9,608 nt of DNA from a virus. Taxonomy: Duplodnaviria > Heunggongvirae > Uroviricota > Caudoviricetes. The stretch lies in IMG/VR virus record IMGVR_UViG_2645727905_000011. The stretch is one strand, 5' to 3'. Numbering within the stretch: the first letter of the stretch is position 1; every line of letters begins with the position of its first letter. The translations under genes and the position numbers were made by a program. Shown in pieces: positions 3,931-4,110 of this stretch. The notes below the pieces were generated by a model. That model was given only the letters and a program-made list of their open reading frames with translations, did not search any database and was not told where the DNA came from.

Positions 3931-4110
3931 AACAAAGCAGTAATAGCCAGATTTATTGGTGATTCCAAAATGTGGCTTGAAGCAAATAAAGCGATGAAAT
4001 CAGCTATCAACCTTCCGTGGTATCGCAGGAAATGAGTTTTACAGATAACTGGTCAGACGAAGAATTCATTCGTCAGATGAAAGAATTAATCGGTAACGAA
4101 GGAGATATTC

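Follow-up and report, generated by a model that had tools for sequence, protein, structure and literature searches.

What becomes of the immunity region when a lambdoid replication gene and a recombination operon stand side by side with almost nothing between them? This question was raised by a 9,608-nucleotide stretch of DNA from a virus of the Caudoviricetes (IMG/VR record IMGVR_UViG_2645727905_000011), which we call the window in its whole length. A sequence-only reading had noted a short spacer at positions 3931–4110 where lambdoid phages carry cro, cI, N and their operators, and had proposed that the neighbouring replication gene was truncated and that the adjoining operon may have lost its promoter control.

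The ORF list and annotated relatives identified the window as a decayed HK97/mEpX2-like lambdoid prophage of E. coli. On the same evidence, its minus strand carries Q, ninH, rusA and a truncated nuclease gene at 1–1356 and what remains of the genes for a DnaB-like helicase and an O-like initiator at 3401–3882, with an inverted foreign block on the plus strand at about 1352–3405. The plus strand from 3883 to 9608 holds kil, two small ORFs, and genes for a Rad52-family recombinase, an HNH endonuclease, ssb, anti-RecBCD, an LprI-family protein, xis and int. Identity to the window is 100% for the chromosome of E. coli Z1323HEC0067 and 99.8–100% for that of E. coli Z1323HEC0423. Over the right arm (3883–9608) both genomes match the window at 100%, and in the left arm (1–3882) one of them differs at 0.2%, which could reflect gene conversion with other resident prophages. 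The element in Z1323HEC0423 is about 17 kb long, is located between yegL/ibs and mdtA, and also bears EspJ and NleG effector genes together with truncated lysis and tail genes.

Several other features of the element were observed. Outside the window, at 6709–6719 of NZ_CP148334, a holin pseudogene truncated at its C-terminus overlaps a tail-tip pseudogene truncated at its N-terminus, which suggests another large deletion in the same element that removed lysis, head and most tail genes. Within the window, the HNH endonuclease gene (4998–5465, plus strand) lies between the rad52-like recombinase gene and ssb, whereas in mEpX2 and Sf6 ssb directly follows the recombinase gene with no HNH gene there; it looks like a mobile HNH insertion. 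The stretch 6988–7745 (plus strand) comprises the LprI-family (lysozyme inhibitor) gene, whose product has a signal-peptide-like N-terminus, and a strong terminator-like hairpin after it at 7718–7745; situated between the recombination genes and xis/int, it has the look of a moron. The foreign block at 1352–3405 (2.05 kb) matches an e14/ymfL-type prophage segment (NZ_OZ465017) at 99.9% identity and is inverted between HK97-like gp66′ and the helicase remnant, P′. It comprises an HTH/ydfO-like gene (3′ part), perC/yfdN, genes for an N6-adenine methyltransferase and a LexA-N-terminal-like protein, and a 3′-truncated rusA. Its ends, at about 1351/1352 and about 3405/3406 (junction 2), are illegitimate junctions with the 2-bp microhomologies CA and TA. 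The plus-strand rusA at 3083–3439 is chimeric, its last 11 or so codons being antisense helicase remnant past junction 2, although PGAP annotates an intact RusA here; another rusA, complete and in inverted orientation, occupies 806–1168.

Replication gene remnants and kil

We examined the minus-strand ORF of 130 codons at 3538–3930, with which the sequence-only reading had begun. No purine-rich Shine-Dalgarno (SD) sequence precedes its TTG start, and the frame stays open as far back as the stop at 4000–4002, both as described. The proposal that the 5′ part of a replication gene is deleted also held, but the truncation lies at 3882/3883 and not upstream of 3930. The O-derived portion, O′ (3538–3882, minus strand), consists of the C-terminal 114 codons and stop codon of a replication initiator of the HK97 gp54 type. 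It was assigned by amino acid alignment, in which it corresponds to residues 160–273 of the 273 of gp54 with 114/114 identical, by PGAP, and by phrog_345 ('replication initiation O-like', E 2.4e-57, profile positions 185–295 of 297), which places it with the O-type C-terminal domains. No Pfam domain was found in the remnant; in intact gp54, Phage_rep_O occupies residues 19–113, and this N-terminal DNA-binding domain is absent from the window. The 100% identity to gp54 and the PHROG and Pfam matches were taken as settling the family, and NCBIfam gave no matches for kil, O′ or the small ORFs.

The 130-residue translation matched gp54 only from its own residue 17. Alignment and translation identified the preceding 16 codons, from the TTG at 3930 down to 3884 on the minus strand, as a spurious 5′ extension. 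Neither these codons nor the open frame up to 4000–4002 showed any homology to O; both are antisense kil. The truncated O gene had appeared longer because this antisense frame happens to be open. Next to O′ is P′ (3401–3541, minus strand), in which the N-terminal 47 codons survive of a replicative helicase, DnaB-like and of the HK97 gp55 type; it was recognized by the Pfam DnaB N-terminal domain (E 2.7e-5), by PGAP (pseudogene 'missing C-terminus') and by nucleotide identity (97–98% to the O–P region of HK97 and HK446 from 3402 onward). P′ is cut at junction 2, about 3405/3406. Neither O′ nor the other remnant contains disabling mutations. Judged from its sequence, O′ is a pseudogene fragment and not a functional member of the initiator family.

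The first plus-strand gene had been placed about 180 bp beyond the O-like ORF, at 4111. Pfam, PHROG and PGAP all revealed an earlier one, kil, an intact 50-codon ORF at 3883–4035 (plus strand) for a host cell-division inhibitor peptide. Its product matched Pfam PF06301 (Lambda_Kil) with 72.6 bits (cut-off 27.6; E 1.7e-20) and phrog_2055 over its full length (E 2.1e-35), and PGAP lists it as 'kil' (WP_001243379.1). The gene overlaps the end of cIII and lies upstream of the recombination genes, a layout also found in mEpX2, HK97, Sf6 and the intact A25 prophage (NZ_CP028750). It was overlooked at first reading because it is nested, on its own strand, in a longer open frame spanning 3664–4035. 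The interval 3931–4110 is thus no mere spacer, but holds the 3′ two-thirds of kil and conserved native phage sequence. In an alignment with mEpX2, Sf6, ECP1 and the intact A25 prophage, positions 3883–4292 were almost invariant, and therefore the sequence to the right of 3883, including 3931–4110, is native and unaltered.

Two small ORFs follow on the plus strand. The first (4032–4202), of the Sf6 gene 30/HK022 p38 family (phrog_2123, E 2.2e-39), overlaps the kil stop codon as well as the next ORF, in a different frame; it is annotated in mEpX2 and Sf6 and not by PGAP, and its coding status is doubtful. The second (4111–4281), of the Sf6 gene 29/HK97 gp42 family, is a small conserved gene with a GGAG SD sequence, found by phrog_1723 (E 1.2e-33) and PGAP. 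A mosaic patch at 4168–4240 (alignment columns 286–355) was seen here, in which the window and mEpX2 share one allele and A25, Sf6 and ECP1 another. Its substitutions are mostly synonymous in the frame of 4111–4281, a pattern that supports this frame over ORF 4032–4202, the latter being annotated in several phage records. The next gene (4290–4997, plus strand) codes for a single-strand annealing recombinase of the Rad52/Rad22 family (Pfam PF04098, E 1.1e-25, and annotation). The operon, described earlier as rightward, corresponds in lambda terms to the leftward (pL) operon of recombination genes, xis and int.

The junction and the missing region

We compared the window with both sides of the HK97 and mEpX2 region in a three-way alignment (window, HK97 O side, and HK97/mEpX2 cIII–kil side). 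The window follows the HK97 O side as far as ...GCCGCCCCCGTTA and the cIII/kil side from CGTTATGCGCAATG... onward, with a clean switch at CGTTA, a 5-bp microhomology at 3879–3883 that is common to both sides. The breakpoint therefore lies about 50 bp to the left of 3931–4110, where the junction had been sought, and falls inside the 130-codon ORF. Megablast against phages gave the same position: the left arm (3402–3883) is 97–98% identical in nucleotides to O–P of HK97, HK446 and mEp213, the right arm (3879–4500) is about 98% identical to cIII′–kil–rad52 of mEpX2, mEp235 and HK75, and the two sets of matches overlap at 3879–3883. In HK97, HK446 and mEp213 both arms were matched, at two places per record, and no phage record in this search matched both arms contiguously across the junction. 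The flanks are colinear with the intact reference and keep the same relative orientation, and identity changes abruptly at a few shared bases, as in a microhomology-mediated deletion scar.

The junction is carried by 2 of 5426 complete E. coli genomes, and an exact 34-mer spanning it had no match in a genome set with one genome per species. No IS or tRNA feature is annotated at the junction. Independently, RefSeq PGAP annotation of the identical genome gives a pseudogene 'missing N-terminus' at 3538–3882, kil at 3883–4035, a hypothetical gene at 4111–4281 and the Rad52 gene at 4290–4997.

The right-hand side of the junction preserves the very end of cIII. In the A25 prophage and mEpX2, cIII ends with ...GCG TTA TGC GCA ATG AAA TAG, overlapping kil; comparison with these two showed that the window keeps the last five cIII codons and the stop codon (3881–3898, plus strand), overlapping the kil start as in intact phages, and that the rest of cIII is deleted. 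The ATG of kil is retained, and its SD sequence GGAGG has turned into CCCCC at the junction. Upstream of kil the A25 prophage has GGAGGCGTTATG; the kil leader reads ...CTGGAGGCGTTATG in A25, HK97 and mEpX2, as opposed to ...CGCCCCCGTTATG in the window.

The extent of the loss was read from the HK97 map (AF069529). There O and kil are divergent, and gp53, cII, cro, OR, cI, gp49, gp48, N, gp45, a terminator and cIII lie between them. The breakpoints map to 6478 and 11627–11631, about 5153 bp apart. Relative to HK97, the window has lost the N-terminal domain of O with the iterons and the AT-rich tract, gp53, cII, cro, OR/pR/pRM, cI, the genes between cI and N, N, nutL, OL/pL, and all but the last five codons of cIII. 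The ori of lambda sits inside O. HK97 O contains four direct repeats (iterons) with 20–24 bp spacing at map positions 6533–6615 and an AT-rich tract at 6484–6530, which by analogy would constitute the replication origin. They begin just past the breakpoint, and the window has no such combination of iterons and AT-rich tract inside its O remnant.

The ORF list and PGAP showed no repressor, cro or other immunity gene between O′ and kil, and pL, OL, N and nutL are absent upstream of kil in the window. In agreement with the earlier remark that cro, cI, N and the operators are missing, PGAP and the promoter and repeat scans found no cI and cro flanking operator palindromes with divergent promoters, the arrangement that marks a lambdoid immunity region. 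The failure to see convincing promoters or operator-like repeats was likewise borne out. A consensus scan of 3000–4600 found one promoter-like site (4038–4065, plus strand, 9/12 matches) against 1.0 expected in shuffled sequences, and none on the minus strand. Upstream of kil, no plus-strand promoter-like site was found anywhere in the window, and by eye no fortuitous promoter had been formed by the junction. In the whole window, sigma-70 consensus promoter-like sites numbered 4 versus 10.3 ± 3.1 in shuffles, that is, fewer. A search of 3800–4300 for direct and inverted repeats (6-bp seed) turned up nothing but short chance matches in two copies, and repeated palindromes of 15–20 bp were absent. 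Rfam at the gathering threshold gave no matches in the whole window.

One hairpin noticed by eye, GACGAA-N7-TTCGTC with a 6-bp stem at about 4055–4073, was considered as an operator and rejected; the sequence around it is invariant in intact phages, and it was therefore taken to be native. An intact arrangement, with operators and a complete protein beginning at 3930, is excluded. Colinearity of the window with HK97, with mEpX2 and with the intact prophage of A25 supports the central proposal: the 5′ part of the replication gene and the whole immunity region (cro, cI, N, operators) are gone, and with them the native promoter control of the neighbouring operon. Taken as a whole, what the sequence-only reading had observed was confirmed in part, and its interpretation was in part supported.

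Origin of the junction

On the basis of the alignments, we read 3879–3883 with high confidence as a scar left in an HK97/mEpX2-like lambdoid prophage by an illegitimate, microhomology-mediated deletion. Before such a deletion, O in the pR operon and kil in the pL operon diverge across about 5 kb; the deletion would have fused O, at a point in its middle immediately 3′ of the AT-rich tract, to the last cIII codons at the kil start codon. Beside that tract is a small palindrome, CCCCC-GTTA-GGGGG, with the O-side breakpoint in its loop, and this palindrome could have favoured breakage or slippage. We infer that the event was recent, because only 2 of the 5426 genomes carry the junction and neither remnant has disabling mutations.

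The same junction might have arisen by illegitimate recombination between two resident lambdoid prophages, or between a prophage and an infecting phage, in a multi-step rearrangement that also inserted the inverted block at 1352–3405. Such an exchange is unlikely, but several features point towards it: the O′–P′ island is only about 480 bp long and ends in a second illegitimate junction at about 3405, the inverted block next to it matches a different prophage type at 99.9% identity, the host has several lambdoid prophages (3–5 matching places per genome), and the closest relatives of the right arm (A25 and E. coli MFDS1001074) have O/P of the lambda type and not of the HK97 type. However, the relative orientation of O and kil is exactly that of a simple deletion, HK97, HK446 and mEp213 combine the same O–P type with the same kil type, and the left backbone (Q, ninH, rusA, gp66′) is HK97-like too. 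The outcome would be the same either way, with immunity and ori lost.

The element now has no repressor, operators, antiterminator, origin, functional initiator or helicase, and consequently repression, induction, antitermination and replication of the element would all be abolished. The operon from kil to int is left without pL or N and would be essentially promoterless. Lambda Kil is made from pL, blocks FtsZ ring assembly in a ZipA-dependent manner, and is lethal when expressed (PMC3961180). In the window the toxic kil gene is probably silent in spite of its intact ORF, its promoter and ribosome-binding site having been lost. Transcription of kil and the recombination genes could start at weak or non-consensus promoters, or reach them by read-through out of the block on the plus strand at 1352–3405; the block is a 5′-truncated fragment without a recognisable promoter, and no plus-strand terminator-like site was found between 3440 and 4197. 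The case is one of ordinary prophage decay, a textbook example already annotated in RefSeq as a pseudogene beside kil. It has little significance outside annotation. The EspJ/NleG-carrying element of roughly 17 kb would be a locked-in remnant that neither replicates nor can be induced.

The lack of decay in O′ could also be taken as a sign of function. In lambda, the C-terminal domain of O-type initiators recruits the helicase or its loader, and O′, by analogy, would keep this helicase-recruiting domain. With its ORF open and its O′ part free of disabling mutations, the fragment, perhaps as the chimeric 130-residue protein, might be expressed and serve as a decoy for an incoming helicase or loader, leading to exclusion of HK97-type phages; the deletion scar would then have created a small anti-phage exclusion gene. 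This is very improbable, as the ORF starts with a TTG without an SD sequence and has no minus-strand promoter-like site in the scanned region, and as a recent event explains the lack of decay equally well. Inhibition of replication in the manner of lambda was rejected as a function of the O′ remnant. When cloned fragments of the lambda replication region cause such inhibition, oop and the iterons of ori are involved (PMC3349717), and the iterons are deleted here.

An assembly artefact, in which similar prophages were collapsed into one, is extremely improbable. There are multiple lambdoid prophages in the genome, and both junction-carrying genomes come from one project, but the identical junction is present in two separately assembled complete genomes with left arms differing at 0.2%, and a collapse needs long repeats, not a 5-bp microhomology. 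The idea that an unusual phage without a classical immunity region is natively arranged in this way and intact, with which the absence of recognisable operators would agree, can be dismissed as having next to no probability, since the N-terminal 159 residues of O are missing together with ori, only 47 codons are left of the helicase gene and five of cIII, kil has lost its SD sequence, and the junction is in no phage record.

Comparison with related prophages

The deletion reading was viewed against the closest relatives of each arm. HK97 resembles the window in O′ and P′, in having homologues of kil and the downstream ORFs, and in the divergence of O and kil; it differs in possessing the roughly 5.15 kb, from O codon 159 to the kil ATG, that the window lacks. 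In the genes downstream of kil, the window is of the mEpX2/Sf6 type with a rad52-like recombinase gene, whereas HK97 has erf. From the kil ATG on, mEpX2, mEp235, HK75 and the intact A25 prophage are 98–98.6% identical to the window in nucleotides and share with it the pL-operon gene order cIII, kil, small ORFs, rad52 and ssb, which in A25 continues to xis and int. Upstream of kil these four have cIII, N, a repressor gene, cro, cII, complete O/P and the GGAGG SD sequence, in contrast to the window, which has none of them.

A second remnant, in E. coli MFDS1001074 (NZ_CP106929), is like the window in its yegL/ibs–mdtA site, its EspJ/NleG cargo and its right arm (98.6% identical). It is likewise without an immunity region, and a 5′-truncated O pseudogene faces the pL operon. 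Its O′, however, is of the lambda type, the microhomology is the 2-bp TA at about 11325/11326, and the right breakpoint is upstream of DUF2528–cIII–kil, so that cIII and the kil SD sequence are kept. In the same remnant the rad52 gene bears an IS66 insertion. Since the two deletions differ in O′ type, microhomology and cIII retention, we conclude that they were independent events. Independent loss of the same region at the same site fits with recurrent selection for, or a high mutational rate of, loss of the immunity and replication modules in prophages that carry effectors. It is possible that the independent O-to-N deletions in these two effector-carrying siblings reflect selection to lock in the type III secretion system (T3SS) effector cargo and to silence kil.

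In its workings the remnant is like other cryptic lambdoid prophages. Rac and Qin retain repressors, RacR and DicA, that silence the toxin. Rac kilR and Qin dicB of E. coli K-12 resemble the present case in that decayed lambdoid prophages retain a division inhibitor that needs to be silenced (PMC12482147, PMC10448788). Rac KilR is unrelated in sequence to lambda Kil (PMC3961180). The main difference concerns the means of silencing: in Rac and Qin the toxin is held silent by the repressor that was kept, whereas in the window, where repressor, operators and promoter are gone, kil would be kept silent by the very loss of its promoter and SD sequence.
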